A stretch of DNA of 22,782 nucleotides from a virus (IMGVR_UViG_2778261160_000006:1-22782), one strand, 5' to 3'; shown: positions 3,141 through 22,782, counted from the first letter of the stretch. Notes: generated from the letters alone by a model not told the origin. A program made the numbers and translations.

Positions 3141-3291
3141 TCATCTACATGTCACAACGTGCATCTACGCCATCAAACCACGTCAAATAATCAATTATGA
3201 CGCAGGTATCGTATTAATTGATCTGCATCAACTTAACGTAAAAACAACTTCAGACAATACAAATCAGCGACACTGAATACGGGGCAACCTC

Positions 3292-3486
3292 ATGTCAACG
3301 AAGAACAGAACCCGCAGAACAACAACCCGCAACATCCGCTTTCCTAACCAAATGATTGAACAAATTAACATCGCTCTTGAGCAAAAAGGGTCTGGGAATT
3401 TCTCAGCCTGGGTCATTGAAGCCTGCCGTCGGAGACTAACGTCAGAAAAGAGAGCATATACATCAATCCAAAGTGATGATGGATGA
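3292..3486 (+). CDS. Hypothetical small basic protein, 64 aa; possibly a ribbon-helix-helix or YlcI-like protein
   Basis: ORF between cos and bor with an Arg/Thr-rich N-terminus (MSTKNRTRRTTTRNIRFPNQMIEQINIALEQKG...). The family assignment is a guess from its position in DLP12-like prophages. Confidence 0.3.
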   Translation: MSTKNRTRRTTTRNIRFPNQMIEQINIALEQKGSGNFSAWVIEACRRRLTSEKRAYTSIQSDDG

Positions 3487-3846
3487 ACATCCCGGTTTCT
3501 TCCACCATCGCACCGGAAAAGCGACTATGAGGGTAACCCTGCGTCTGTCAGCACAGTAAAACCCGGTGTGCATCATTTTTGATTATTCCCGCACACTCAC
3601 GCAGAAGGAATTCCCCGTCGGGCTACGGTCATGGTTAATGCGGGAATACGGCGACGATACAGCGCAGCTAAAAGGGTAATGGACAGATAGAGCGGTTTAT
3701 TTCATTCCACAGGATTCTGAGTGCCCCCCCTCCTCCAATAGGCTGAGCATCCACCTATATAGTTTTAATTTTCATCAATCCATTTAACTATCGTTTAATT
3801 GTTGTCACATAGGATTCTGCCGTTTTTAACAATGCAGGATAATAAG

Positions 3847-4140
3847 ATGAAAAAAATGTTGTTTTCTGCCGCTCTGGCAATGCTTATTACAGGATGTGCT
3901 CAACAGACGTTTACTGTTGGAAACAAACCGACAGCAGTAACACCAAAGGAAACCATCACCCATCACTTCTTCGTTTCGGGAATTGGACAGGAGAAAACTG
4001 TTGATGCAGCCAAAATTTGTGGCGGCGCAGAAAATGTTGTTAAAACAGAAACCCAGCAAACATTCGTAAATGGATTGCTCGGTTTTATTACTTTAGGCAT
4101 TTATACTCCGCTGGAAGCGCGTGTGTATTGCTCACAATAA
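3847..4140 (+). CDS. bor: Bor outer-membrane lipoprotein (serum resistance, Iss family), 97 aa
   Basis: From the internal Met, MKKMLFSAALAMLITGCAQQTFTV...YTPLEARVYCSQ matches lambda Bor, including the lipobox LITGC. It is oriented opposite to the lysis genes as in lambda. Confidence 0.9.
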   Translation: MKKMLFSAALAMLITGCAQQTFTVGNKPTAVTPKETITHHFFVSGIGQEKTVDAAKICGGAENVVKTETQQTFVNGLLGFITLGIYTPLEARVYCSQ

Positions 4141-4171
4141 TTGCATGAGTTGCCCATCGATATGGGCAGCT

Positions 4172-4633
4172 CTATCTGCACTGCTCATTAATATACTTCT
4201 GGGTTCCTTCCAGTTGTTTTTGCATAGTGATCAGCCTCTCTCTGAGGGTGAAATAATCCTGTTCAGCGGTGTCTGCCAGTCGGGGGGAGGCTGCATTATC
4301 CACGCCGGAGGCGGTGGTGGCTTCACGCACTGACTGACAGACTGCTTTGATGTGCAACCGACGACGACCAGCGGCAACATCATCACGCAGAGCATCATTT
4401 TCAGCTTTCGCATCAGCTAACTCCTTCGTGTATTTTGCATCGAGCGCAGCAACATCACGCTGACGCATCTGCATGTCAGTAATTGCCGCGTTCGCCAGCT
4501 TCAGTTCTTTGGCATTTTTGTCGCGCTGGGCTTTATAGGTAATGGCGTTATCACGGTAATGATTAACAGCCCATGACAGGCAGACGATGATGCAGATAAC
4601 CAGAGCGGAGATAATCGCGGTTACTCTGTTCAT
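4172..4633 (-). CDS. Rz: Spanin inner-membrane subunit Rz, 153 aa
   Basis: From [36 protein letters not shown]... the translation is near-identical to lambda Rz. Its start overlaps the endolysin stop. Confidence 0.9.
4231..4413 (-). CDS. Rz1: Spanin outer-membrane lipoprotein Rz1, embedded in the +1 frame of Rz, 60 aa
   Basis: [47 protein letters not shown]... matches lambda Rz1, including the lipobox and proline-rich tract, and lies wholly inside Rz. Confidence 0.85.
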
Positions 4634-5127
4634 TGCTGACCCCACAAACAGATTTCACGCTCAATCTCACGACGAGTCATGAGACCTTTCCATTGCTTAC
4701 CGCCAGCATATGTCCAGCGACGTAACTGATCACATGCGCCTTTGATATCGCCCTGGTTTATTTTGCGAAGAAGCGTCGATGTTCTGAAATTGCCAGCACC
4801 CACGTTGTAAACGAATGAGTAAAGAGCGCCGCGCGTTGTTTCCGGTATATCGACTTCGATGTATGGGTTAATTTGTCTGGCGACAGTGGCAAGGTCTTTA
4901 TTCAAGAGTGCTTTGCATTCTGCTTTGGTATACGTTTTACCGAGCATGATGTCTTTTCTTGTATGCCCGTGACATACGGTCCATACACCAACAATATCTT
5001 TGTATGGTATGTAGCTGACACCTTCCAGACCATCGTTACCACTTGGGCCAGTGATTAACACTGATGCTATAGCAATTGCTCCGCCACCAATAGCAGCAGC
5101 AACGGCTTTTCGTAATGATGGAGGCAT
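4630..5127 (-). CDS. R: Phage-21-type endolysin (T4-lysozyme-like muramidase) with an N-terminal SAR signal-anchor-release domain, 165 aa
   Basis: N-terminal weakly hydrophobic Gly/Ala-rich segment [20 protein letters not shown] followed by a lysozyme-like domain. It matches DLP12 RrrD / P21 R as I remember them, and sits between the holin and Rz. Confidence 0.9.
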
Positions 5128-5342
5128 TATTCACCTCTCGCAGCCTTGCGCTTATCTTCTTTAATCTTGAAATAAAGGTTTGTCAGGTACGTCAGCAGGC
5201 CAAATACCAGGCTACCCAGCACACCTATTGCTGCCCACTGTGAGGGCGTGACTTTATCGAGCAGCTGTAAAAACCAGTAACCGGCACTACCTGCTGAGGT
5301 GCCATAGGCGACACCCGTTGTTAACTTATCCATGGATTTCAT
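5127..5342 (-). CDS. S: Pinholin S21-type holin/antiholin with dual start (MKSMDK), 71 aa
   Basis: [71 protein letters not shown] has two TM segments and the Met1-Lys-Ser-Met4 dual-start motif of P21 S / DLP12 EssD. The ORF-track N-terminal extension is probably not translated. Confidence 0.88.
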
Positions 5343-5932
5343 AACCCCACCTCGCAGACAAAGCGGGTGTAAATTGAGGGAATACAACGTATCGCAAAAA
5401 AGCAGAAACGTAACAGACTCGGAGTCAGTGAATAACTCAGGTATTGAGTTATCAGCTAATATCGAGACTCAAAAAATGGAAAAACCAGCTCGACGGCGGG
5501 TTTAAGCTGTGTGACGAAGTAACCACTCTTAACAGCATAACCAATTTTTTACGTACGTAAACCACTGAATGATATTTATGAGAATGCTACCGAGTGTTCA
5601 AAACACCACCACAAATACATAAGAAAACCTCAACAAATAACCAATAAATAATTTCCGGCGTTATTTTTAGTTAATTTAAATTAAACCATCGAATTATAGC
5701 CCCCCCCCATAAATAACAGCCATTAATATAAATTAGCTAATAGGTTTATTTTTGTTCAAATAAGAGCCATAAATAGGTTTCGATAGAAAAAGTTCAGATA
5801 AAAATAGAGATCTACTTCACAAATTAAATGAGAAACTAAAACTTACATCTTGAAATAATCACATTGATTAGATGAATATTTATCGCGCAGTGACATCATT
5901 TTTTAATAATAGTTCAAAAAAAAGGGCTCACG

Positions 5933-7015
5933 ATGAAAAAATTAACAGTGGCAATTTCTGCTGTAGCTGCATCAGTACTGATGGCGATGTCTGCTCAGGC
6001 AGCTGAAATTTATAATAAAGACAGTAACAAGCTGGATCTGTACGGGAAAGTTAATGCTAAGCACTACTTCTCCTCTAATGATGCAGATGATGGTGATACT
6101 ACTTATGCCCGTCTTGGCTTCAAAGGTGAAACCCAAATCAACGATCAACTGACTGGTTTCGGTCAGTGGGAATATGAATTCAAAGGCAACCGCGCTGAAT
6201 CTCAAGGTTCCTCCAAAGATAAAACCCGTCTTGCCTTCGCTGGCCTGAAATTCGGTGACTACGGCTCCATCGATTACGGCCGTAACTACGGTGTAGCATA
6301 CGACATCGGTGCGTGGACTGACGTCCTGCCAGAATTCGGTGGTGACACTTGGACTCAAACAGATGTGTTCATGACTGGTCGCACCACTGGTGTTGCAACT
6401 TATCGTAACAACGACTTCTTTGGTCTGGTTGATGGTCTGAACTTTGCTGCTCAGTATCAGGGTAAAAATGACCGCACTGACGTAACTGAAGCTAATGGTG
6501 ATGGTTTCGGTTTCTCCACTACTTATGAGTATGAAGGATTCGGTGTAGGTGCAACCTATGCTAAATCTGATCGCACTAATAATCAGGTTATCTACGGTAA
6601 CAACGGTCTGAATGCTTCTGGTCAAAATGCTGAAGTATGGGCAGCTGGTCTGAAATATGATGCGAACAACATCTATCTGGCCACCACCTATTCTGAAACC
6701 CAGAACATGACTGTTTTTGGTAATAACCATATTGCCAACAAAGCACAAAACTTCGAAGCTGTTGCACAATATCAGTTCGACTTCGGCCTGCGTCCATCCG
6801 TTGCTTACCTGCATTCTAAAGGAAAAGACTTGGGTGTTTGGGGTGATCAGGACCTGGTTGAATATGTTGATGTAGGTGCAACCTATTACTTCAACAAAAA
6901 TATGTCCACTTTTGTTGACTACAAAATCAACCTGATTGATAAGAGCGATTTCACGAAAGCATCTGGCGTTGCTACCGATGATATCGTTGCTGTAGGTATG
7001 GTTTACCAGTTCTAA
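5933..7015 (+). CDS. nmpC: Outer-membrane general porin of the OmpC/OmpF/PhoE family (NmpC / OmpD-like), 360 aa, apparently intact
   Basis: Signal peptide [23 protein letters not shown], the AEIYNKD...LDLYGK porin N-terminus, a beta-barrel-type sequence and the C-terminal ...VGMVYQF motif. It is a moron between Q and the lysis genes, on the opposite strand. Confidence 0.9.
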
Positions 7016-7203: not shown

Positions 7204-7602
7204 TTAATTAGAGTTATTAACAACGATATCCATCTCTAACCGGATATCTAATGCCATTAACATCCCTTCAATTATGCCCTCAGCCTTTTGTAACCTTTTC
7301 CCGATATAACCATCAGAGCAGCAATGCTTACCTGCCAGTGACATGAATGTCATACCGACTACATAATAATCTACTAATAAATCGTGCAAATCGCTGTTGT
7401 TCTTTTTCAGACGGGCCATGCACCCGCAAATGATCATCGCGTCATCGTCACAACATTGCGGGCGAGATTTTACTTTTGAAGGAATTAATCCCTTAAAACC
7501 GGCGGCAATGGACGACCAGGTCACATCTTCATGATTATTAGCCGCCCACGCTCCCCAACGCTCAAGAACCATCTGAATATCACGCATCAACTTACTCCAC
7601 AA
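7204..7602 (-). CDS. Q: Late-gene antiterminator Q (phage 82 / DLP12 QuuD type)
   Basis: ...[62 protein letters not shown]... matches QuuD with a Cys-rich zinc-binding region. The true start may be the second Met (7587), giving 127 aa. Confidence 0.85.
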
Positions 7603-8465: not shown

Positions 8466-8628
8466 GATTCCTCCTTGCTGCCAGTCGCAACCATTTTTTA
8501 TCAACCAGGCTAGCGGTATATCCGAGCAGTGTTGGTATTTCGGATGGCTTCAGCTCAGGCTTACGCTTACGACGATTTGATACTCTGTAGATGTGTCCGT
8601 TCATGACACGAATAAGCGGTGTAGCCAT
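8458..8628 (-). CDS. ninE: NinE-like small protein, 56 aa
   Basis: Hand-translated [59 protein letters not shown], coupled at both ends to ybcN and ybcO by overlapping stop/start codons. Confidence 0.5.
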   Translation of the reverse strand: MATPLIRVMNGHIYRVSNRRKRKPELKPSEIPTLLGYTASLVDKKWLRLAARRNHG

Positions 8629-9083
8629 TACGCCTCCTGCTTGTCACGGAGCAGCTGGAACTCGCAGCTCTGCGGAATAGTCAGGTGGCAGCCAATATTC
8701 ACCGCCCAGGCTTCAACCTTACACAGGAAGACATACATCTCTCCGGTATCAAGATCGGAGGTATGGCGTAACGACTGGATAGTGGTGATATCACCGGTTA
8801 CGACATCAACCAGGTCTTTGGTTTCATAACCGAGATATGTGTGTTTGAGAGCATCTTTTACCCAAGCTGGAGTGGCGAACGTTTTACCCCTGTTGATGAG
8901 GTATTCACTGATTTCGCTGTACCACATGTGGCTGAGTGCATTCTGGGAAAGACTGCGTTTCTCACGCCACGGTTTAAGCACCATGCGAAAGCATTTGCCC
9001 TCCTCCAGATAAGGCTGGATCTGCCGACCGATAGCGGTGAAGTTACCGCGATGTAATTTGATGCCATCTTGTGGGAGATTCAC
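8628..9083 (-). CDS. ybcN: YbcN-like nin-region protein, 151 aa, GTG start
   Basis: [55 protein letters not shown]... matches DLP12 YbcN by length and position; the start codon is GTG. Confidence 0.7.
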
Positions 9084-9181
9084 GCTTCACCTCCGCAGAG
9101 GTCAAACGCTGGATACAATATATCGCAGGTGCATTTCTGCATCTGTGGAGGGAGAAGAGAGTTTGGATTGTGTGTGCGCAT
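9080..9181 (-). CDS. YlcH-like micro-ORF, 33 aa
   Basis: Hand-translated [36 protein letters not shown] whose stop overlaps the ybcN GTG start (GTGA). Size and position match ylcH of K-12 DLP12; the sequence itself is not verified. Confidence 0.35.
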
Positions 9182-9270
9182 AAACGTCCCCGTTTAGCGC
9201 AGAAGTCACCGGAGTTGTTCAGGCTCCGATGACATGATTATGGCGAGTTGATTATCGCAAATCAAAGGTT

Positions 9271-9627
9271 TTAATTGTGCTTTATTCCTTCAAGCGTTGC
9301 CTTCATACCAACCAAAGAAATGTTTAGCTCTCCAACTTTCTCAGGGCTATATAATTCAGAATGAAGCCAATATTCTGATTTATCTAAACATCTTTTAGCC
9401 AGCTCTCGATCAAAGTCTACGACTTGGGAAGACGCTTCATACCAAAGCCTATAAAGTTTTTCTTCTTCGTTTGGGTTATTAGGCTCACCACGTTTTAATT
9501 TTTCAGTATATAAAATTGTTGAACAAATCGCAGGAGTTAATCCAGTGATTGCCCTCTGCCGCAGATCGGATTTGTTTGTTATCCACCCCAACAGACGATC
9601 TCCCATCCATGTGATAATTGTATCCAT
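9271..9627 (-). CDS. Hypothetical protein, 118 aa, AT-rich cargo gene of unknown function
   Basis: Clean ORF MDTIITWMGDRLLGWITNKSDLRQRAITGL... with low GC relative to the phage backbone; I recognise no family. It occupies the slot where K-12 DLP12 carries ybcL/ybcM. Confidence 0.5.
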   Translation of the reverse strand: MDTIITWMGDRLLGWITNKSDLRQRAITGLTPAICSTILYTEKLKRGEPNNPNEEEKLYRLWYEASSQVVDFDRELAKRCLDKSEYWLHSELYSPEKVGELNISLVGMKATLEGIKHN

Positions 9628-10088
9628 GCTTTAGCCCTTCTTAGTAAATAGTGTGTAGGGCGACTGAAGGACCGAGTTTATGCTTTTTCGCATTGCTTTC
9701 AGTTAGTACACCGGTATCGCACCGGAAACAATCCTACGGCAAATTGGTTGTCTGACCTCTCGGTTTTTCGTGCATTAACCGATACCCACTACAGTCTCGG
9801 CGAAAGCTGCACACCCCCAGGGTGTACTGGTAGCACTCGGCACAGCCTAGCACGCCACTTTCTTCTCACTATCCAGTCTAATTTTATCCCCTAGTCAGAC
9901 ACTCAGATGTAGTGCTCCGCAGCGGCATGCGGGGGAATACAAAAACTCGGACAAAATTGGGCCCTCCTTTTTGAATCACTCGCGGGGATGTAGTTATTAA
10001 TACATGGAAAAAGATCTGTTTTCAAATCCAACATTATATGGTTTCAATACCACGGGGTGGCTATGTGTTTCTCATTGTTAATTGGAAT

Positions 10089-10412
10089 CTACTGTAATCG
10101 ATCCGAACGTAAATGCGGCAAAACTCGACTCCACTTATCATCCTGCCACGGCCGGAATTTTACATGTGCCGTTTCTCTGGCAAGGATTGCCTGTGCCTTA
10201 TTGAGTATCTGGGGATATTCTTGCTCGATAGAAGTGAAGCGACCAGCTTCACGATGCTCCGCAACCTGAAGAAGAGGAGTAACGTTCTGGTAGGTAATTA
10301 ACATCACATTCCCTGCTCGCCATAACCAGGCGAGTGTGCAAAGTTCGTTATCAGTGAATTGTTTTGTGATTGGGGATTGTTGAACTGCTAGAACGAGAAC
10401 GCCAGCATCCAT
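10089..10412 (-). CDS. Hypothetical protein, 107 aa, unknown function
   Basis: ORF MDAGVLVLAVQQSPITKQFTDNELCTLAWLWRAGNVMLITYQNV... immediately downstream of the serine recombinase gene; I recognise no family. Confidence 0.45.
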   Translation of the reverse strand: MDAGVLVLAVQQSPITKQFTDNELCTLAWLWRAGNVMLITYQNVTPLLQVAEHREAGRFTSIEQEYPQILNKAQAILARETAHVKFRPWQDDKWSRVLPHLRSDRLQ

Positions 10413-10523
10413 TGGCAGTCCCTATAGTAAAACCATAGCTCAGGACGCTTCGTTCAGGATAGATAATTTTATTGTACTTACCTAACTTTCTTACTATAGC
10501 ACGGTTGAAAAAGTGATTATTAC

Positions 10524-12050
10524 TCAAAAATAAACCTCACCATCAACCATATATTTGAGAGCACTTATCGCCTGCTGGGCGGATATTACTTTCATTAAAG
10601 GATAGTGTTTAAAAACAATGCCATTCATAAAATAGATATCACAGGTTTTATTATCCGTATTAATTATGATTTTTTCGAATGTTTTATAGGCAAGTGTACG
10701 GCATAACTCTCGTCCATTTTTACTGGTTAAGTCAATAGCATAAAAATCACTGAATGAATTTACACCTTTACTCTTCAAAGTTTTCAATGATACCGAAGCC
10801 CTTCTTAATTCCTTATCTAATAGTCTTATTTTCTCTGCTATAGCGGTAACTTCAGGCGCGACAGACAATGCAACGATTAAATTATTAATTTTCATCTGAA
10901 GCTCAATAATTTTTAACTCTAAAGTTTCATTAGCATCTTTCTTGTTTTCAACTGGTTGAATTTTGCTACAATTAAAAAGCAATTCATTAATGATATTATA
11001 ATCAACCAAATCTCTTTTTATTGATGGCCTGTCACATCGATGTAATCTTCTCATCGGACAAACATAATAGCCATGCAAACTTCCAGATACCGCATGAACA
11101 ATCATGGTATTACCACAAGCCTCACACTTCATAACTGTTCGAAGTAGATTTATTAGCATAGGATTCTTGCTACTATTGCTAATACCAAAAGGTGCCAACC
11201 GAATTTCCTGTACAGCGTAAAACAAATCATCTGATATGACTCTGGGATAATAGCCAGCGATTTCACTTATCCCTTTCCCTCTTGCACGATATGAAGGTAC
11301 GCATATACCTATCAGAGCTTTATTCGCTAATAATTTTTCAATTACAGAAGGTCCCCATGCACTTTCTTTTCCTGAGAAATTCTTTACAGCATGATCATTT
11401 AAATACTTGGCTATTGCATTCAATGAGCGCCTTTCCATCCTGAGTTTAAAAATTAGCTCAATAGTTTTCACCCTGTCGGGGTCTGGAACAAAAGCCGTTC
11501 TTTTGTCATCTAAGGAGAGCCATCTCGGACAAGACGCCGTCATAATCGTACCTGATTCCAGTGCATCCTGCCGTTTTTTCTTCCATGATAATTTAACCCG
11601 ACTTGACTTTATCTCGCTTTCTTCATTTGCCCTTTGTGCTATAAGTATGGCTTTTATTAATGAATATGGCTCATTCAAAGAGTCAATATTATAGACTGTA
11701 TTGTCGCAAAGAGTTATAACATCAATACCGTGATTCAAAATCAATTTCAGACGTTCAATCGCTTCACCGACTTTTTCTCTTGAAAGTCTGTCCAGACTTT
11801 CAACTAACAATGTAGTTCCTGGCAATATATAACCATGCTCTATAGCATCTAAAAATTCCGAAAAAGCTCCTGATTGTGCATGCTTTCCTTTGAATGCACT
11901 TAATCCTAAATCTTCATATGTTATGGTATCAAGATAATAATCACTATTTACCTTTAACCATTCAGCAATAAGTCTTCTCTGTCGGTTTAATGAGTCGCCA
12001 GACATCTGACCTGGTGATGAAAATCGCATATATGCTATGGCTTTTTTCAT
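10524..12050 (-). CDS. ybcK: Large serine recombinase (resolvase/invertase-type catalytic N-domain, recombinase domain and Cys-rich zinc-ribbon region), 508 aa
   Basis: N-terminal catalytic motif AIAYMRFSSPGQ with the nucleophilic Ser, a Cys cluster CEACGNT...YYVCP...HRC, and a C-terminal coiled coil. The gene is strongly AT-rich, and the length and sequence match DLP12 YbcK. Confidence 0.88.
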   Translation of the reverse strand: MKKAIAYMRFSSPGQMSGDSLNRQRRLIAEWLKVNSDYYLDTITYEDLGLSAFKGKHAQSGAFSEFLDAIEHGYILPGTTLLVESLDRLSREKVGEAIERLKLILNHGIDVITLCDNTVYNIDSLNEPYSLIKAILIAQRANEESEIKSSRVKLSWKKKRQDALESGTIMTASCPRWLSLDDKRTAFVPDPDRVKTIELIFKLRMERRSLNAIAKYLNDHAVKNFSGKESAWGPSVIEKLLANKALIGICVPSYRARGKGISEIAGYYPRVISDDLFYAVQEIRLAPFGISNSSKNPMLINLLRTVMKCEACGNTMIVHAVSGSLHGYYVCPMRRLHRCDRPSIKRDLVDYNIINELLFNCSKIQPVENKKDANETLELKIIELQMKINNLIVALSVAPEVTAIAEKIRLLDKELRRASVSLKTLKSKGVNSFSDFYAIDLTSKNGRELCRTLAYKTFEKIIINTDNKTCDIYFMNGIVFKHYPLMKVISAQQAISALKYMVDGEVYF

Positions 12051-12235
12051 GGTGACACCTGCTAACGTATGCTTTTATAAACCTTAGTGGTGGGATATAA
12101 TTTTTGTTTAATTTTTATTTAAAAAGACAATTAAGGTCACATTATCTTGAATATACAACAATAATCGTATTGCAATTTTCTTACGCCATAATCTTGAAAG
12201 CACAAAAGAACACATAAAAAAATAAAGACATTAAC

Positions 12236-12275
12236 AAAAAGCATAAAACGAGGCTCATATAAATATAAGAGCCTC
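12236..12275 (-). terminator. Rho-independent terminator downstream of emrE (GAGGCTC stem, AT-rich loop, U-tract)
   Basis: 7-bp perfect inverted repeat at 12250-12256 / 12269-12275 followed on the - strand by GTTTTATGCTTTTTG. Confidence 0.5.
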
Positions 12276-12306
12276 CATATTTTAGTCGTTTAGAAACAAA
12301 TTATTT

Positions 12307-12639
12307 TTAATGTGGTGTGCTTCGTGACAATAGATTAATAACCAACACACCGGCACAAATCAACATCATGCCTATAATGGCTGGCAGGTCCAGCCGTTGG
12401 CCGAAAAGTCCCCATGACAGTAAGCTAATCAGGACAATACCGACTCCTGACCAGATAGCATAAGCAATCCCTGTAGGAATATAAGCCAGCGTCTGAGCTA
12501 ATAACCAGAATGATGCACAATAACAAATAATTGTACCAACAGATGGCCATAACCGTGTAAAACCTTCTGAAAACTTCATTAAGGTTGTACCAATGACCTC
12601 TGCAAGTATTGCACCACCAAGATAAATATAAGGGTTCAT
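12307..12639 (-). CDS. emrE: Small multidrug resistance (SMR) efflux transporter EmrE, 110 aa
   Basis: MNPYIYLGGAILAEVIGTTLMKFSEGFTRLWPSVGTIICYCASFWLLAQTLAYIPTGIAYAIWSGVGIVLISLLSWG... has four TM helices and the conserved Glu14. The ORF-track N-terminal extension is probably not translated. Confidence 0.92.
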   Translation of the reverse strand: MNPYIYLGGAILAEVIGTTLMKFSEGFTRLWPSVGTIICYCASFWLLAQTLAYIPTGIAYAIWSGVGIVLISLLSWGLFGQRLDLPAIIGMMLICAGVLVINLLSRSTPH

Positions 12640-12798
12640 AGCATATTCTTTCCTGTTCAAACTGGAGAGAATTGTACTACAGTTTGAACTCAACTCACCT
12701 GTTTCATCATTGTGTACCCATTGATGTTCTTTTATATACCCTCAATACCCGTTTCATCGCGGCACTCTGGCGACACTCCTTAAAAATCAGATTCGTGC

Positions 12799-13008
12799 TC
12801 ACCTTTCCTTCCCGTTCTTCTCTGGTAGCGAACCGGTAATACACCGTTCGCCAGACCTTACCATCAACGACCAGGATTCCTGCCCGGCCATTTTAGCCGC
12901 AGCCTGATTTATGCTGGTTACGGTTGCGCCTGTTACCGCGGCAACGTCCTGCGCACAGAAGTTCTTATGAGTCCCCAGGTAATGAATAATTGCCTCTTTG
13001 CCCGTCAT
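12799..13008 (-). pseudogene. ren: ren fragment: lambda Ren N-terminal ~40 aa followed by unrelated sequence
   Basis: MTGKEAIIHYLGTHKNFCAQDVAAVTGATVTSINQAAAKMA matches the lambda Ren N-terminus, then homology ends at about 12890. The start overlaps the P stop (ATGA) as in lambda. Confidence 0.7.
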
Positions 13009-13706
13009 ACACTTGCTCCTTTCAGCCCAAACTTAGCTTTGATTTCTGCGATCTTCGCCAAAGCCTGTGCACGATTTAGAGGTCTACCGCCCATGACAGG
13101 AAGTTGTTTTACTGGTTCAGGTATAGCCTCACCACGGTTAATTCGCGCGATCATACAGGACAGTTCATCGGCAGCCTTGCGCCGTAATTCCGCGTCAGTC
13201 AGCGCATTGGCTCGCATGTTCTGGTACAGGTTGGTAACCAGCCAGTAGTGCGCGTTTGATTTCCACGGATAAGACTCTGCATCCGGATACAGCCCGCGCT
13301 TCCGGCAATACTCGTAAACCATATCAACCAGCTCGCTGGCGTTTGGCAGCCCGGCGGTAACGGATGCTTCTTCCCGGCACCAGGCGACAAACTGCCCGGG
13401 TGATGGCAGGAATGGTCGATTCTGCCGACGGGCTACGCGCATTCCTGCGTTAACCTGTTCCATTGTGGTGATCCCGTTTTCCCGGAAAGCCAGAACCCAC
13501 TGGCGGCGGATTTCGTTCAGTTCATTCTGGTCACGGTTAGCCAGGCTCGCCGGGAAAGTTGCCAGTAACTGCCTGAACACACCGTTGATGATCTGCGCTA
13601 CCTGCTGTACCTGTGGCTTTTCGTCGTACTGTTCCGGCATGTTGTTGGCGATCCGACGCATCTGCTCACAGTCAAAGTTAACCATTTGTGCGGCGATGTT
13701 TTTCAT
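13005..13706 (-). CDS. P: Replication protein P (DnaB helicase loader), 233 aa
   Basis: MKNIAAQMVNFDCEQMRRIANNMPEQYDEKPQVQQVAQIINGVF... is near-identical to lambda P over its full length. Confidence 0.93.
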   Translation of the reverse strand: MKNIAAQMVNFDCEQMRRIANNMPEQYDEKPQVQQVAQIINGVFRQLLATFPASLANRDQNELNEIRRQWVLAFRENGITTMEQVNAGMRVARRQNRPFLPSPGQFVAWCREEASVTAGLPNASELVDMVYEYCRKRGLYPDAESYPWKSNAHYWLVTNLYQNMRANALTDAELRRKAADELSCMIARINRGEAIPEPVKQLPVMGGRPLNRAQALAKIAEIKAKFGLKGASV

Positions 13707-14632
13707 AAATCCACCCCATAAATCCAGTCAGTGTTTGTCAGGTCCAGTTTTGATTTTCCGGCTGTCACTCCAGCCTGTTGCTTGTTACGGTTGATTTCGA
13801 GTTGGGTCCACTTGTCACGGAGTTTGGCCGGACTTAGCACGTTACCGGACCAGAAGTTGTCCTGGCATGCCCAGCGGAACAGCACGCACATGTCGCGGTG
13901 GTTACGTCCGTCACGTTCACGCATCAGGCGGATATCGTTAGCCCACCCTGCAAAATTCGGTTTTCTGGCTGATGGCGCGATGGTCTTCACCATGTCAAAC
14001 ATCCACTCTGCGGCGGTCAGGTCTTCTGCTGTCCCCCACTTGCTGCCGCTCTGAATCGCAGCATCCGGTTTCACCACAGGAAGGTCGTTTTCTGGCTGGT
14101 CAGAGTATTCGCCAGAATTCTCGGACGAATAAGGTTTTATATTGTCTTTTGTTAGTTTGTCTTTTGTGTTTACCTGATTCGGGTAAGTGCCTTTACCTGA
14201 TTTGGGTAAACTTTTCTTACCTGATTCAGGTAAATTTACCTCTTTCAGGTAAACTTTATTTTTCTTACCTGATTCGGGTAATGTTGACCATTCACTGACC
14301 ACATTATTAATGCCGATATTCCGCCCGCTCTGAATAAAAATCCCACGCTTTACCAGAACACTTTTTGCAGCAGAACACTTGTGCGGCAATATCCCGGTCA
14401 ACTCGGAAAGTTGCTCGTTGCTCACCCAATCCAGTTTTTTATTAAAGCCATATGTTTTGCGCATGACAGCCAGGAAGACCAGAAGCTGGTGCTGTGTTAA
14501 TCCGGCCAGCATCACAGCTTCCAGCAACTCATTTGCAATGCGCGTATAACCATCATCGAGATCTGCCACGCGCGGCTCCTTTTGTGCCGCATCCGGCACT
14601 GGAAAATTGAATATCTCAGCAGTGTTTGCCAT
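13703..14632 (-). CDS. O: Replication initiator O, 309 aa from MANTAEIFNF; lambda-type C-terminal domain with a divergent N-terminal iteron-binding domain
   Basis: The C-terminal ~180 aa (YPNQVNTKDKLTKDNIKPYSSENSGEYSDQPENDL...NTDWIYGVDL) are near-identical to lambda O, while the N-terminal domain is only partly similar. The ORF-track upstream extension is probably not translated. Confidence 0.88.
   Translation of the reverse strand: MANTAEIFNFPVPDAAQKEPRVADLDDGYTRIANELLEAVMLAGLTQHQLLVFLAVMRKTYGFNKKLDWVSNEQLSELTGILPHKCSAAKSVLVKRGIFIQSGRNIGINNVVSEWSTLPESGKKNKVYLKEVNLPESGKKSLPKSGKGTYPNQVNTKDKLTKDNIKPYSSENSGEYSDQPENDLPVVKPDAAIQSGSKWGTAEDLTAAEWMFDMVKTIAPSARKPNFAGWANDIRLMRERDGRNHRDMCVLFRWACQDNFWSGNVLSPAKLRDKWTQLEINRNKQQAGVTAGKSKLDLTNTDWIYGVDL
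14121..14281. repeat. ori: Replication origin inside O: five 17-bp iterons (TTACCTGATTCGGGTAA-like, at about 14170, 14193, 14217, 14236 and 14265) plus an adjacent AT-rich region (14121-14169)
   Basis: Direct repeats with internal dyad symmetry (TTACC...GGTAA) read directly from the sequence, followed in the O reading direction by an AT-rich stretch, the same layout as ori-lambda. Confidence 0.8.
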
Positions 14633-14718
14633 AATTCCTCCCGCAATGAGTGTGTTACGATTTGCACCTGAAAGTCGGTTCTGTTCCCGCAGACCGACTT
14701 TCGCCATTTTTGAACCTG

Positions 14719-15264
14719 TCATATTGCCCCCAGCATGGTGGTGACCATCGCCATCAATGGACCAGCCAGATCCGGGTCCACTCTAAACATCGACACAATG
14801 CCTTCACTCATCTCCTTCAGTTTCTGGTGGCGTGGTGCGTTGAGAATGACAGCCTGTTTTGCCTCACTGAGTTCCTTTTCCATTTCAGCCAACCTAGCCA
14901 TAAAGCTATCCTGCTCAACCAGGTAACCGCGATATTCCAGCGGTAGTACCGCCAGAATTGCCGGGGTCAGTTCACGCACGTTATTTCGGTATTTTTCAGA
15001 ATCGAATTTGTTATCGAGGAAGCGGAACAGCTTCTGGCGTGCACGGCTGACATCATCAGGGAAATCGATGGTGCCGCCGCCCTGCTCCCGATACTCATTC
15101 ACAATGAGTGCGGCAACAACATCCTGATTATCTGCAGCCGACCAGGCGCGGACGGCATCACGGATTTTTTCGTGGCCTGGAGCTTGTTTTGTTTGAGAAC
15201 GATTTATCACCGCAGTCGGGCTAAATCCGCTAGTCTGTTGGTATGTAAGTGGTTGCATAGTCAT
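14719..15264 (-). CDS. YdaT-like protein (CII functional analogue position), 181 aa
   Basis: It sits between the cro-like gene and O. The motifs EYREQGGGTIDFP and LTPAILAVLPLEYR resemble Rac prophage YdaT as I recall it; assignment is tentative. Confidence 0.55.
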   Translation of the reverse strand: MTMQPLTYQQTSGFSPTAVINRSQTKQAPGHEKIRDAVRAWSAADNQDVVAALIVNEYREQGGGTIDFPDDVSRARQKLFRFLDNKFDSEKYRNNVRELTPAILAVLPLEYRGYLVEQDSFMARLAEMEKELSEAKQAVILNAPRHQKLKEMSEGIVSMFRVDPDLAGPLMAMVTTMLGAI

Positions 15265-15516: not shown

Positions 15517-15626
15517 TATCAATTCCTATTGGTATTGCAACGAATAAATAATAGCAATGCGTATTAATCATAACAATAGCAAAACGTGTTTTGACCATCA
15601 ATACGCAAGCGTATAAATTAAAACTT
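15517..15626. promoter_or_regulatory. OR-like divergent control region: repeated AATAGCAA / TTGCTATT operator-like motifs, a putative pR on the - strand (-35 TTGTTA, 17 nt, -10 TATTAT) and a putative pRM on the + strand (-35 TTGACC, 16 nt, -10 ATAAAT) ending 8 nt before the cI ATG
   Basis: Read directly from the sequence. Similar ATAGC-containing motifs recur at the OL-like site at 17400-17450, and both regulators share the recognition-helix motif GVAQPT(V/I)WR. Confidence 0.55.
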
Positions 15627-16319
15627 ATGAAAAAAGAAACTCTTGCTGATCGCTTAAACCTAGCGATGGAACAATCTGGAATGTCTCAAGGCGCTCTTGC
15701 AAAGGCGTCTGGCGTAGCTCAACCCACAATCTGGAGACTGACAAGCGGCAACGCGCGCGGCTCAACAAAAATTGTTGAAATAGCTAATGCATTGGGTGTT
15801 CGAACAGAATGGCTCTCATCAGGCATAGGCCCGATGAGAAATGACGGTCAACAATTAGGGAAGCCTACTGCCAACCATCCCAAATACTTCAAGATTGACG
15901 TTCTTGATATAGAAGTGAGTGCCGGGCCGGGAGTCATCAACCGTGAGTTTGTAGAAGTTCTACGCTCGGTTGAGTACTCGTTTGACGATGCTCGTCACAT
16001 GTTCGATGGTAGGAAGGCAGAAAATATCCGCATCATTAACGTGCGTGGTGACAGCATGTCAGGAACGATCGAACCAGGTGATCTGCTGTTCGTTGATATC
16101 ACGGTTAAATCTTTCGACGGTGATGGCATCTATGCGTTTCTGTACGACGACACCGCCCATGTAAAGCGCCTGCAAATGATGAAGGATAAGCTGCTGGTTA
16201 TCTCTGATAACAAGAGCTACTCACCGTGGGACCCGATCGAGAAAGACGAGATGAACCGGGTGTTCATCTTCGGTAAGGTTATTGGGAGCATGCCCCAGAC
16301 GTACAGGAAACATGGATAA
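15627..16319 (+). CDS. cI: CI-like prophage repressor: N-terminal XRE-type HTH plus C-terminal LexA/S24 autopeptidase domain, 230 aa from MKKETL
   Basis: HTH MSQGALAKASGVAQPTIWRL, an Ala-Gly candidate cleavage site (EVSAGPG), the Ser nucleophile in VRGDSMSGTIEPGD and the Lys in HVKRL. The ORF-track TTG start at 15591 coincides with the putative -35 element. Confidence 0.85.
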   Translation: MKKETLADRLNLAMEQSGMSQGALAKASGVAQPTIWRLTSGNARGSTKIVEIANALGVRTEWLSSGIGPMRNDGQQLGKPTANHPKYFKIDVLDIEVSAGPGVINREFVEVLRSVEYSFDDARHMFDGRKAENIRIINVRGDSMSGTIEPGDLLFVDITVKSFDGDGIYAFLYDDTAHVKRLQMMKDKLLVISDNKSYSPWDPIEKDEMNRVFIFGKVIGSMPQTYRKHG

Positions 16320-16385: not shown

Positions 16386-17249
16386 ATGGATTGTGACGCT
16401 TTACAGGATATAAAAATCTCTCTTAGGTATGACGGAAAAGATGCTTTAAATCATGAAATAGATTTGAACTGCCTAGGAGAATCCCTAAAGGGTTTTTCTA
16501 AAGTTCTCTCAACAGCAGCTTCTTTCTCTGTTACACAAAAATATAGTAAATACATTAATTATCAGGAAGTTAAGGTTTACGCACGCGAAGCAAAAGCTAA
16601 CTGCTTTACTCTTGAAGCAGTTCTTAACTTCGCCACTCAGAACCAGTTGTTCTCGGGGATCGCCGCAACTATACTTGGCGCAATACTACAATATATTTTT
16701 GCGAGAAATTCTAACAAGAAAGATGAAATGAAAGCTTTGCAGCAGTCACTTGAAAAGGCCATAGAGGCACTAGGAAACAAGGATGCTGGAACCATTGATA
16801 AGTTGATCTCTTTGATTGACCGAATGGCTGTAGAGCTTCGCCCCTCTGTAAGGCAGGCAGTATCACCTATTGGTAATACTTGCGATCAGATAAGTGTTGC
16901 AACAAATGTTGACGGCTGCCTTCTAAAAGTTAACGAGAGAGATAAAGCTGAAATTGATAGGCTTGATGATGATGAAGTTCTCGGTCTTCGTGAGTATCGT
17001 GCTTTTCTTACAGAATTTGATGCACAAAATATGACAGCTAAAATAATTTTAGATGGTGATGACTCAAAAAAGAGAATCACTGCTGAAATTAGCGATCCAG
17101 CTGCAGGAAAGAAGAATAACCCGTATATTAGAGCTCTTAGTGCATATATATCAACCAAAGGTGATCCATCTGCAGTATTCACTATAACCGCAAAGGCTAC
17201 TGTTAAAAAAGGCCAGATAAACAGGTTATTTATTGTAGATGCGAAATGA
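16386..17249 (+). CDS. Hypothetical 287-aa protein in the rexAB position (directly downstream of cI, same strand); AT-rich, with one central hydrophobic segment and a predicted coiled-coil region; candidate lysogen-expressed exclusion or defence gene
   Basis: A clean ORF with markedly lower GC than cI, sitting 66 nt after the cI stop and followed by a strong intrinsic terminator. It has a hydrophobic stretch [19 protein letters not shown] and no similarity to RexA/RexB that I can see. Confidence 0.6.
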
Positions 17250-18314: not shown

Positions 18315-19100
18315 ATGAGTACAGCACTCGCAACGCTGGCAGGGAAGCTGGCTGAACGTGTCGGCATGGATTCTGTCGACCCACAGGAACTGATCACCAC
18401 TCTTCGCCAGACGGCATTTAAAGGTGATGCCAGCGATGCGCAGTTCATCGCATTGTTGATCGTCGCCAACCAGTACGGCCTTAATCCGTGGACGAAAGAA
18501 ATTTACGCCTTCCCTGATAAGCAGAACGGCATTGTTCCGGTGGTGGGCGTTGATGGCTGGTCCCGCATCATCAATGAAAACCAGCAGTTTGATGGCATGG
18601 ACTTTGAGCAGGACAATGAATCCTGTACATGCCGGATTTACCGCAAGGACCGTAATCATCCGATCTGCGTTACCGAATGGATGGATGAATGCCGCCGCGA
18701 ACCATTCAAAACCCGCGAAGGCAGAGAAATCACGGGGCCGTGGCAGTCGCATCCCAAACGGATGTTACGGCATAAAGCCATGATTCAGTGTGCCCGTCTG
18801 GCCTTCGGATTTGCTGGTATCTATGACAAGGATGAAGCCGAGCGCATTGTCGAAAATACTGCATACACTGCAGAACGTCAGCCAGAACGCGACATCACTC
18901 CGGTTAACGATGAAACCATGCAGGAGATTAACACTCTGCTGATCGCCCTGGATAAAACATGGGATGACGACTTATTGCCGCTCTGTTCCCAGATATTTCG
19001 CCGCGACATTCGCGCATCGTCAGAACTGACACAGGCCGAAGCAGTGAAAGCTCTTGGATTCCTGAAACAGAAAGCCACTGAGCAGAAGGTGGCAGCATGA
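18315..19100 (+). CDS. bet: Bet (Red-beta) single-strand annealing recombinase, 261 aa
   Basis: [66 protein letters not shown]... is near-identical to lambda Bet. Confidence 0.95.
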
Positions 19101-19777
19101 CACCGGACATTATCCTGCAGCGTACCGGGATCGACGTGAGAGCTGTCGAACAGGGGGATGATGCATGGCACAAATTACGGCTCGGCGTCATCACCGCTTC
19201 AGAAGTTCACAACGTGATAGCAAAGCCCCGATCAGGAAAGAAGTGGCCTGACATGAAAATGTCCTACTTCCACACCCTGCTGGCTGAGGTTTGCACCGGT
19301 GTGGCTCCGGAAGTTAACGCTAAAGCGCTGGCCTGGGGAAAACAGTACGAGAACGACGCCAGAACCCTGTTTGAGTTCACTTCCGGCGTAAATGTTATTG
19401 AATCCCCGATCATCTATCGCGACGAAAGTATGCGCACCGCCTGCTCTCCCGATGGTTTATGCAGTGACGGCAATGGCCTTGAGCTGAAATGCCCGTTTAC
19501 CTCCCGGGATTTCATGAAGTTCCGGCTCGGTGGTTTCGAGGCCATAAAGTCGGCTTACATGGCCCAGGTGCAGTACAGCATGTGGGTGACGCGAAAAGAT
19601 GCCTGGTACTTTGCCAACTATGACCCGCGTATGAAGCGTGAAGGCCTGCATTATGTCGTGGTTGAGCGGGATGAAAAGTACATGGCGAGTTTTGACGAGA
19701 TGGTGCCGGAGTTCATCGAAAAAATGGACGAGGCACTGGCTGAAATTGGTTTTGTATTTGGGGAGCAATGGCGATGA
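19097..19777 (+). CDS. exo: Exo (Red-alpha) 5'-3' exonuclease, 226 aa
   Basis: [62 protein letters not shown]... is near-identical to lambda Exo. Its start overlaps the bet stop. Confidence 0.95.
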
Positions 19778-21420: not shown

Positions 21421-21763
21421 GGCCTGTCAGTTTCTTAAGATATCCAGACCAACCGCCACCAACTGGATACGAACAGGCCGCCTACAGGCAACACGTAAAG
21501 ATCCAACCAAGCCAAAATCTCCTTACCTCACAACACGGCAAGCCTGCATTGCGGCGCTTCAGTCTCCGCTGCATACTGTCCAGGTGAGCGCGGGTGATGG
21601 CATAACAGAGGAAAGAAAATGTCACTCTTCCGCAGAAATGAAATATGGTATGCCTCGTATTCGCTCCCGGGCGGGAAACGAATTAAGGAATCTCTTGGCA
21701 CAAAGGACAAGCGGCAAGCTCAGGAGTTGCACGACAAGCGAAAAGCAGAACTCTGGCGAGTAG
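21392..21763 (+). CDS. xis: Excisionase-like HTH protein (AlpA/Xis type), up to 123 aa from MESYSL, overlapping the int start
   Basis: HTH motif [26 protein letters not shown] immediately upstream of int. The reading frame continues 145 nt into int, so the true C-terminus is uncertain. Confidence 0.6.
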
Positions 21764-22782
21764 AAAAGCTAGGGGATTTACCTGATGTCACTTTTGAAGA
21801 GGCCTGCCTAAGATGGCTTGAGGAAAAAGCTGATAAAAAATCTCTCGATTCAGATAAAAGCCGGATTGAGTTCTGGCTTGAACATTTTGAGGGTATAAGG
21901 CTTAAAGATATCTCGGAGGCAAAGATTTACTCTGCTGTAAGCAGAATGCATAACAGAAAGACGAAAGAAATATGGAAACAGAAAGTTCAGGCCGCCATCA
22001 GGAAAGGTAAAGAACTGCCTGTTTATGAACCAAAGCCAGTATCAACTCAGACAAAGGCAAAGCATCTTGCCATGATAAAGGCCATTCTCCGTGCTGCAGA
22101 ACGCGACTGGAAGTGGCTGGAAAAAGCGCCTGTCATCAAGATACCAGCGGTCAGAAACAAGCGAGTCAGATGGCTGGAAAAGGAGGAAGCAAAACGCCTT
22201 ATTGATGAGTGCCCCGAACCACTGAAATCTGTCGTCAAGTTTGCGCTGGCAACTGGTCTGAGAAAGTCGAACATCATAAATCTGGAATGGCAACAAATCG
22301 ACATGCAGCGACGAGTTGCCTGGGTGAATCCAGAAGAGAGCAAATCAAACCGCGCCATTGGTGTGGCGCTGAACGATACCGCCTGTAAAGTGTTGCGTGA
22401 TCAAATAGGCAAGCATCACAAATGGGTGTTTGTACATACCAAGGCGGCTAAGCGAGCAGATGGAACATCAACGCCTGCGGTCAGGAAGATGCGCATCGAC
22501 AGCAAGACATCATGGCTATCAGCTTGTCGTCGTGCAGGAATTGAAGATTTCCGTTTCCATGACCTCAGACACACCTGGGCAAGCTGGCTGATTCAGTCAG
22601 GCGTCCCATTATCAGTGCTTCAGGAAATGGGCGGATGGGAGTCCATAGAAATGGTTCGTAGGTATGCTCACCTTGCGCCTAATCATTTGACAGAGCATGC
22701 GAGGAAAATAGACGACATTTTTGGTGATAATGTCCCAAATATGTCCCACTCTGGAATTATGGAGGATATAAAGAAGGCGTAA
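21619..22782 (+). CDS. int: Tyrosine integrase (DLP12 IntD-like), 387 aa
   Basis: [46 protein letters not shown]... with the C-terminal catalytic region [39 protein letters not shown] (R...HxxR...Y). The window ends at its stop, so att is not in view. Confidence 0.93.

Follow-up and report, generated by a model that had tools for sequence, protein, structure and literature searches.

Hotspots of variable gene content have been described for prophages of the P2/P4 type (PMC9122126) and noted more widely for prophages, lambdoid ones among them, and defence systems have been found in lambdoid prophages (PMC9519451). In phage BTP1 the abortive-infection gene bstA lies downstream of the cI repressor and not in the nin region (PMC8585504). 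We have analysed a stretch of 22,782 nucleotides of viral DNA (IMGVR_UViG_2778261160_000006:1-22782), referred to as a whole as the window. The window is a DLP12-like lambdoid prophage of Escherichia coli, with the early-right operon, from O, P and ren over the nin genes as far as Q, on the minus strand. The subject of this analysis is the segment between ren and the nin gene ybcN, which carries emrE, the large serine recombinase gene ybcK, two small open reading frames (ORFs) and a spacer. The truly variable interval is 9267-12742. It is probably a hotspot for moron and defence genes, situated between O/P/ren and the promoter of the ylcH-ybcN nin operon of DLP12-like lambdoids, and built as a layered mosaic that would be exchanged by recombination in the conserved flanks and whose cargo would serve the lysogen.

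An earlier note on this DNA had described 9084-12890 as a low-GC cargo island with a large serine recombinase. Its inventory agrees with our ORF and Pfam results: emrE, a ybcK of 508 amino acids (aa), ORFs of 107 and 118 aa and a gap of about 460 bp between these two ORFs (9628-10088, 461 bp) are all present. The features of the segment, in the order of transcription, are as follows.

12707-13008, minus strand: ren pseudogene, from alignment with the intact 100-aa ren of relatives
12307-12639, minus strand: emrE, cargo gene for a 110-aa small multidrug resistance (SMR) efflux transporter (Pfam Multi_Drug_Res; RefSeq annotation in relatives)
10458-12298, minus strand: ylcJ-ybcK unit, a discrete indel with the lowest GC, 95-98% conserved down to 10458-10485
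12108-12258, minus strand: ylcJ, a small ORF of the ylcJ-ybcK unit, frameshifted in the lineage of the window (coordinates carried over from the Prokaryotic Genome Annotation Pipeline (PGAP) annotation of strain H10, offset 8264)
10524-12050, minus strand: ybcK, intact gene for a 508-aa large serine recombinase (Pfam, PHROG, dN/dS)
10089-10412, minus strand: 107-aa ORF, a 5'-truncated Bro-N/P22AR_C remnant
9997-10025, minus strand: sigma-70-like promoter of the RNA gene, read from the sequence
9658-9989, minus strand: candidate structured non-coding RNA gene of ~332 nt (conservation, covariation)
9271-9627, minus strand: gene for a 118-aa helical-bundle protein (phrog_12412, homologues, dN/dS)
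9237-9265, minus strand: promoter-like site with a palindrome, the fixed right boundary of the slot (promoter scan)
8628-9083, minus strand: ybcN (NinB family), the conserved right flank (PHROG NinB/Orf, 2.2e-52; RefSeq annotation in relatives)

The low GC of the island was found as claimed when 9084-12890 is taken as a whole (0.395, against 0.51 on either side of it), but it is not evenly spread. The values are 0.343 for ylcJ-ybcK, 0.384 for the 118-aa gene, 0.40 for the emrE unit and 0.472 for the 107-aa ORF, and the RNA gene, at 0.512, has the GC of the flanks.

The alignment to DLP12-like prophages that the note had proposed was run on nine annotated E. coli loci. It gives conserved flanks to 9266 and from ~12743, with sharp breaks at both and a variable cassette between them. 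On the right, homology breaks off at 9266, or only a few bases away, in all nine variants. On the left it ends at ~12743, within the last ~12 codons of ren, and those codons already belong to the variable region. The left boundary had previously been placed near 12890, where homology to Ren stops, and this must be revised. Compared with the intact 100-aa ren of relatives, one base is absent at ~12886; the frame shifts after codon 41, and the remaining codons can still be read, out of frame, as far as 12707. The loss of Ren homology near 12890 is therefore an artefact of the frameshift, and a mosaic joint at this place is rejected. The deletion is an inherited mutation and not a sequencing error, since exactly the same allele is found in 15 complete E. 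coli genomes from unrelated sources. PGAP also labels ren as frameshifted in strain H10, whose island has the same gene set.

The right boundary coincides with a site detected in the promoter scan (TTGATT-N17-CATAAT, 9265-9237 on the minus strand), which lies upstream of a ylcH-like ORF and ybcN. Its -35 hexamer forms one arm of a palindrome, TTGATT-N6-AATCAA, and homology begins at the outer edge of this palindrome in every variant. The arms are conserved in all variants and the 6-nt centre is variable; the palindrome may be an operator.

The content of the slot was surveyed in 80 IMG/VR contigs whose YbcN is closest to that of the window, 67 of which also hold P at this locus. These 67 contigs, with YbcN proteins 97-99% identical to that of the window, display 21 architecture strings, and together with the nine annotated E. 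coli variants they establish that close relatives differ in content at this position. At least 15 other gene contents occur in the slot of related prophages. The proposal of an exchangeable cargo slot is thus well founded: DLP12-like phages do not all carry the same genes here, and between matching flanks lie many gene sets, several of them known or candidate defence genes. The statement that K-12 DLP12 carries ybcL and ybcM between ybcK and ylcH was also correct for the K-12-type locus, and both genes are absent from the window. The contents identified include the following.

emrE-ylcJ-ybcK-ybcL-ybcM: K-12 type
emrE-ybcK, P22AR_C remnant and a BstA homologue (PADLOC, 3.6e-121)
emrE-ybcK and an alpha/beta hydrolase: also in phage 4A7
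emrE-ybcK, then almost nothing: O157:H7
PD-Lambda-1 (1.9e-198), a full 202-aa Bro-N/P22AR_C gene and a 169-aa ORF
HEPN protein and a 133-aa partner
YajG-like lipoprotein and a 150-aa ORF
VasI/TagO-like protein, the RNA and a truncated 118-aa gene
DUF4145 and a theta-subunit pseudogene
PRTase and NADAR
Further census occupants: a Pua-like/metallophosphatase and HAD pair; a TIR protein; an HD protein; a HEC-07-like protein
Further census occupant: a 260-aa ORF without any match

Known anti-phage systems are present in some members of the slot, with strong matches to BstA and PD-Lambda-1; the TIR, HEC-07-like, PRTase and hydrolase defence models match slot occupants more weakly. Non-defence cargo is represented by emrE, a PEBP/AraC pair and an intimin-like adhesin. 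The product of emrE has the length (~110 aa) and the domain of an SMR transporter, with a Multi_Drug_Res match of 4.8e-35 over residues 21-112 of a TTG-extended 128-aa ORF, which are residues 3-94 of the 110-aa protein; its dN/dS is 0.01-0.16. The exact cargo of the window is carried by about 99 genomes, and the island is present in deposited phage genomes, e.g. those of Turner (PP925837) and 4A7. A literature search, which was not exhaustive, found no paper describing a ren-ninB cargo slot.

Three further observations were made on slots of relatives. The slot of viral contig L149 contains a 1183-aa intimin/invasin-type inverse autotransporter (3151-6702), and the hotspot therefore also carries cargo of the adhesin/virulence type. 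IS3-family insertions lie between the 118-aa gene and ylcH in one genome and adjoin the RNA in another (loci L005, NZ_CP045712.1, 2214-3427, and L013). Two loci (L006, 3633-3736; L007, 4027-4164) have a second copy of the ylcH-leader segment, matching 9098-9241 of the window, upstream of a full-length Bro-N/P22AR_C gene, which suggests that short conserved linkers act as crossover points.

The two small ORFs had been described as proteins of no recognised kind, with the proviso that they might be fragments of a disrupted gene. The proviso applies to one of them: profile searches matched the 107-aa protein to P22_AR_C and the full-length 118-aa protein to phrog_12412, the latter with no PADLOC or Pfam family. 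The 107-aa ORF matches P22_AR_C at 1.1e-15 in Pfam, lacks the Bro-N domain, which is of the DNA-binding type, and matched no family in PADLOC 2.0. Its residues 5-107 are 81-86% identical to residues 100-202 of 202-aa slot proteins, which carry both Bro-N and P22_AR_C, and its start ATG lies at the junction. The truncation, at aa 99/100, is identical in five ybcK-linked contents (those ending in the 118-aa gene, BstA, the hypothetical 169-aa protein, the 260-aa ORF and the hydrolase), and the fragment is the gene after ybcK in every ybcK-linked content except the K-12 type. Its first ~57 codons are kept in the hydrolase type and only 42 bp in the O157 type. A full-length P22AR_C gene followed by the RNA and the 118-aa gene, without ybcK, is found in locus L124. 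The dN/dS of P22AR_C is 0.05-0.09 between full-length copies, 0.11-0.17 between truncated and full-length copies and about 0.3 between truncated copies. Constraint on the 107-aa ORF is relaxed, not clearly neutral, and we regard the ORF as a gene remnant that may or may not be active.

From this distribution we infer the order in which the mosaic may have been assembled. Its layers would be emrE, the 2-kb ylcJ-ybcK unit, the 3' half of a Bro-N/P22AR_C gene, the ~332-nt RNA and the 118-aa gene joined to it. A single ancestral illegitimate join would have produced the ybcK-P22AR_C' arrangement, after which the last gene (169 aa, BstA, 260 aa, or the RNA with the 118-aa gene) would have been swapped between the P22AR_C half-gene and the ylcH-ybcN promoter region. 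Exchange would take place by recombination between co-resident or co-infecting lambdoid phages, with occasional illegitimate joins, and the 3' end of ren, the P22AR_C half-gene and the ylcH-ybcN promoter would serve as arms. Relaxed homologous recombination between lambda and defective prophages is the subject of PMC3945230.

The note had tied the slot to the recombinase. YbcK has the domains of a large serine recombinase (Pfam Resolvase, 5.5e-19; Recombinase, 2.3e-14; Zn_ribbon_recom, 7.9e-08) and matches the PHROG family annotated as integrase at 4e-120. The gene is intact in all five variants compared, with dN/dS of 0.06-0.13 and dS up to 0.17, and is under purifying selection. All 12 ybcK records of the phage collection belong to E. 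coli lambdoid phages, and the relatives that come next in it are below 30% identity; a large protein collection holds the YbcK family across Enterobacterales at 41-61% identity. By a rough estimate from an evenly spaced sample of 40 rows, about a quarter of 5,426 complete E. coli genomes have ybcK in the slot. In many E. coli, emrE is joined straight to ybcL-ybcM beside fliE, without ybcK (e.g. L086, NZ_CP196316.1, 2483-4342). Relative to this fliE-linked locus, the K-12-type DLP12 has a clean insertion of 2083 bp that holds ylcJ and ybcK (junction at ~12299 in the window); the K-12-type copy of ylcJ is intact and matches Pfam YlcJ. The indel suggests a separate mobile origin for the recombinase unit. 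A search of the literature for the function of ybcK found nothing specific.

The question is whether YbcK acts in the manner of an integron or shufflon recombinase, inserting or exchanging cargo cassettes at a site that closely follows ybcK. Variable DNA does start 39-66 bp after the ybcK stop codon, the ylcJ-ybcK unit is a discrete indel, and the gene is kept intact by selection in a prophage that has its own tyrosine integrase. Its homologues (42-59% identity in the loci examined) can also lie beside accessory genes: one in Yersinia is found in a P2-like prophage, between the tail genes and the ogr-D-U block and beside an autotransporter (L202), and one in Pantoea is at the nin position of a lambdoid prophage (L205). 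The closer homologues, however, from Atlantibacter (59%; L206/L207) and Erwinia (52%; L208), are at the end of tailed prophages, directly adjoining the host genes smpB and lepA, which is the position of an ordinary prophage integrase. The breakpoints downstream of ybcK are scattered among the variants (10107, 10241, 10458 and 10485), which a single crossover site would not give, and several variants derive from a single P22AR_C-remnant arrangement by nested deletion or replacement. No att-like, direct or inverted repeats beyond matches of chance size were found around ybcK and the cargo, and the junctions at ~12299 and 10458-10485 have no common core, although this is a weak test for att sites, since those of large serine recombinases share only 2 bp or little more. 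Finally, where ybcK is lacking, the content of the slot varies to the same degree between unchanged outer boundaries, emrE-ybcK being one alternative occupant. An integron-like cassette array is rejected on the basis of the scattered breakpoints, the lack of repeats and the variability without ybcK. Given scattered breakpoints beside ybcK and fixed outer boundaries, the slot is probably not exchanged through catalysis by YbcK, and a recombinase-driven slot is in our estimation improbable. The sequence comparisons lead us to read ylcJ-ybcK instead as the putative integrase unit of another element, captured here and still serving a function under selection.

The spacer between the two small ORFs had been described as free of ORFs. 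It is not empty and holds a conserved RNA gene, at 9658-9989. Matches to the segment 9661-10015 occur in a Klebsiella phage (78%) and in a further E. coli prophage (83%), in both cases upstream of unrelated genes. Scans with three invariant blocks and one metagenome scan yielded 109 full-length copies, forming 15 clusters below 96% identity. The invariant blocks are up to 48 nt long, starting at ATCCCCGCGAG (window 9989), and the central region is variable. The putative promoter consists of TTGAAA (10025-10020), a 17-nt spacer and TATTAA (10002-9997), with a putative +1 at the A at 9989; the geometry of the hexamers is kept in other lineages, whose spacer sequences have diverged. The consensus promoter scanner missed this promoter, as its -10 hexamer lacks the final T. 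In most lineages an intrinsic terminator (CCGCC-loop-GGCGG followed by T7-8) is located ~20-30 nt before the next start codon. The terminator is absent from the window, where the RNA leads straight into the 118-aa start codon.

Folding of 19 aligned sequences with RNAalifold gave 82 pairs, 12 of which have compensatory double changes, most of these in helices 7, 9 and 11. Pairing is possible in 97.9% of cells, against 33-49% when the partners are slid. The covariation score of 0.21 was reached by none of 500 shuffles, for which the value is 0.128, and sliding the partners gives ~0.05. The adjacent synonymous sites of the 118-aa gene are saturated in comparisons of these lineages (dS 1.6-1.9), so the RNA is far more constrained than neutral DNA. 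A protein-coding spacer is rejected: no frame is open in all lineages, an antisense frame open in three of them is interrupted in the others, and the variable columns are spread evenly over the three codon phases (44/43/39, p = 0.77). Rfam 15 gave no match at E<=1 over 8500-13300 or at E<=10 for the RNA copy of locus L073, ARAGORN predicted no tRNA or tmRNA, and no description of the ~332-nt RNA was found in a literature search on prophage RNAs and the slot region. An 18-mer from the RNA had four matches among contigs of species-representative genomes, all in unrelated taxa and taken as chance; the RNA is therefore absent from those genomes. We consider 9658-9989 to be a candidate conserved structured RNA gene, whose expression we infer from its promoter.

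Transcription from this promoter would run into the 118-aa gene. Because the terminator of most relatives has been lost, the RNA of the window would form the 5' leader of the 118-aa mRNA. Elsewhere the gene after the RNA varies: the commonest is a 178-aa membrane protein, preceded by the terminator, others are a 183-aa protein and a pair of 93 and 162 aa, and in some cases a cargo gene is lacking altogether. The 118-aa gene is cut to ~66 codons in 59 E. coli genomes whose RNA is intact. As the RNA stays intact where the 118-aa gene is cut, and as the downstream gene varies, the RNA is an independent module and not an obligatory partner of the 118-aa protein. Tentatively, the RNA could be a new class of structured prophage RNA, that is, a portable module from promoter to terminator, placed at the entrance of the nin-region cargo slot, that either gates downstream cargo as a sensing leader or acts in trans in conflict between phage and host or between phages, and that is wired here to a TIR-linked 118-aa protein.

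That protein is the second half of the claim on the small ORFs. The family is genuine, constrained and full length, and the ORF is not a fragment: phrog_12412 covers residues 1-118 of 118, homologues of equal length (118 aa) at 51-79% identity are found in Obesumbacterium, Enterobacter and others, and dN/dS is ~0.1 with dS saturated as given above. Its derivation as a piece of BstA, of the 169-aa protein or of the P22AR_C protein is rejected, there being no similarity to any of these. The AlphaFold2 model has five helices with a mean predicted local distance difference test (pLDDT) score of 72.7. A profile search of 1.8 billion representatives retrieved 346 relatives, most of them stand-alone proteins of 120-135 aa. 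In a few, the family forms the N-terminal domain of a longer protein (P0070, P0055), and one of these, P0070, has a clear TIR domain. Of two remote members whose surroundings were inspected, one is in the nin region of a prophage and the other beside an integrase, with TIR and NUDIX genes nearby; these neighbourhoods hint at a conflict-related role. Given the position in the slot and the fusion of distant relatives to TIR, the RNA and 118-aa module is most likely phage-conflict or regulatory cargo.

A stronger version would make the RNA and the 118-aa protein a two-component toxin-antitoxin, abortive-infection or anti-defence system, in which the RNA is the partner or antidote and not a mere leader. 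The RNA abuts the 118-aa start codon in E. coli, in Enterobacter bugandensis and in two viral-contig lineages (RNA ~70% identical), the module takes the position held in sister phages by BstA, the HEPN protein and other candidates, and the TIR fusions would fit such a system. On the other side, the RNA more often precedes unrelated genes or no cargo gene, and the genomes with a shortened 118-aa gene retain it. No tandem or direct repeats were found in 9628-10088, such as a type III (ToxIN-like) antitoxin would have. The RNA is also absent upstream of the distant members of the 118-aa family that were examined, and of the most divergent homologue, and for this reason an obligatory RNA-protein pair is rejected. 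A two-component system is accordingly unlikely, although it is less so than cassette exchange by YbcK.

It could also be argued that the island is inert debris of a defective prophage, with small ORFs and a spacer that have no function. Frameshifts are present in both ren and ylcJ, constraint on the fragmentary 107-aa ORF is relaxed, IS3 elements have inserted in relatives and the O157 type has lost its cargo entirely. Against this, ybcK, emrE and the 118-aa gene are under purifying selection, the RNA preserves its long invariant blocks next to saturated synonymous sites, and deposited phage genomes carry the identical island. For these three genes and for the RNA, decay is thus largely refuted; it survives for the 107-aa ORF only, and as an account of the whole island it is very improbable indeed.

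Several points weigh against the account preferred here, of a hotspot exchanged through its flanks with a structured RNA among its cargo. YbcK is strongly conserved inside the slot and may take part in mobilising the ylcJ-ybcK unit. That the right boundary is fixed could be due to a site-specific process and not to selection for the promoter. The minimum free energy of the single RNA sequence (z = -1.2 sense, -0.3 antisense) is uninformative alone, and the lineages are few, the 15 clusters all coming from prophages of Enterobacteriaceae, so that some covariation counts are inherited and not independent. The lack of the RNA upstream of distant 118-aa relatives, described above, belongs here as well. 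For the 118-aa protein, the fold matches are generic helical bundles, and no match was found in PADLOC, Pfam or PDB families.

The remainder of the window is that of a DLP12-like prophage. The nin region contains rusA, ybcO, ninE and ybcN, and a YdaT-like gene is also among those identified. The main landmarks outside the slot are as follows.

7204-7602: Q antiterminator
13005-13706: replication gene P
13703-14722: replication gene O
15591-16319: S24/HTH repressor
18315-19777: RecT and YqaJ
21619-22782: tyrosine integrase

The prophage is thus equipped with an integrase and with recombination functions (RecT/YqaJ) of its own. Directly after the S24/HTH repressor lies a low-GC (~0.38-0.42) gene for a 287-aa DUF7946/DUF7947 protein (16386-17249, plus strand), a candidate for a second cargo slot. 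Strain H10, whose ren-ybcN island matches that of the window, has a SIR2-family gene after its own, different repressor. The position after the repressor looks like a second slot, and it is the position of bstA in BTP1. Downstream of Q is an intact ompC/nmpC-like porin gene (360 aa; 5933-7015, plus strand), with a GC of ~0.31-0.34 in the upstream region 5400-6000; it is another moron of the DLP12-like prophage type.

The cargo island is in itself ordinary, being one more well-delimited prophage hotspot. The slot from ren to ylcH-ybcN is nevertheless a practical place to mine new anti-phage genes, as many of its occupants have no annotation. YbcK could be useful as an orthogonal recombinase or be the sign of a nested mobile element. 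The RNA, if it is a true regulator or partner of interchangeable cargo, would be a new type of riboregulatory element in prophages.

The individual components may be compared with known systems. YbcK resembles the large serine recombinase integrases of phages (PHROG 95) in its three domains and its N-terminal AYxRxSS motif, and in having homologues (52-59%) at prophage ends; it differs in being internal to a prophage that has a tyrosine integrase. The 107-aa ORF shares with P22 Ant-type antirepressors (Bro-N and P22AR_C) its P22_AR_C match and its identity to the C-terminal half of the slot proteins, but it lacks Bro-N and hence the two-domain composition, has a junction-derived ATG and is under relaxed constraint. 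The RNA is similar to long cis-acting attenuator leaders of the T-box/riboswitch type and to the AbiF-type non-coding RNA with HEPN in being structured, a few hundred nt long and equipped with a promoter of its own and, in relatives, with a terminator ahead of the next start codon. Unlike these, it has no Rfam match, no constant downstream gene and, in the window, no terminator, and no antiterminator alternative was identified in it. As to the BstA abortive-infection locus (PMC8585504), a BstA homologue of sister phages occupies exactly the position of the RNA and the 118-aa gene; BstA and the 118-aa protein have no sequence similarity.

At the level of the whole island, one comparison is with K-12 DLP12, which has emrE, ylcJ and ybcK at ~98% DNA identity between matching flanks. 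The two diverge from 10485, 39 bp after the ybcK stop codon, and ybcL-ybcM of K-12 is replaced here by the P22AR_C remnant, the RNA and the 118-aa gene. With the P2/P4-type hotspots the slot shares conserved flanks, a short interval of varying content, enrichment in anti-phage genes and deviating GC. It differs from them in its location, from ren to the ylcH-ybcN promoter of DLP12-like lambdoids, in being two-tiered, with a Bro-N/P22AR_C gene or half-gene as an internal arm, and in carrying non-defence cargo too, such as emrE, the intimin-like adhesin and the PEBP/AraC pair.

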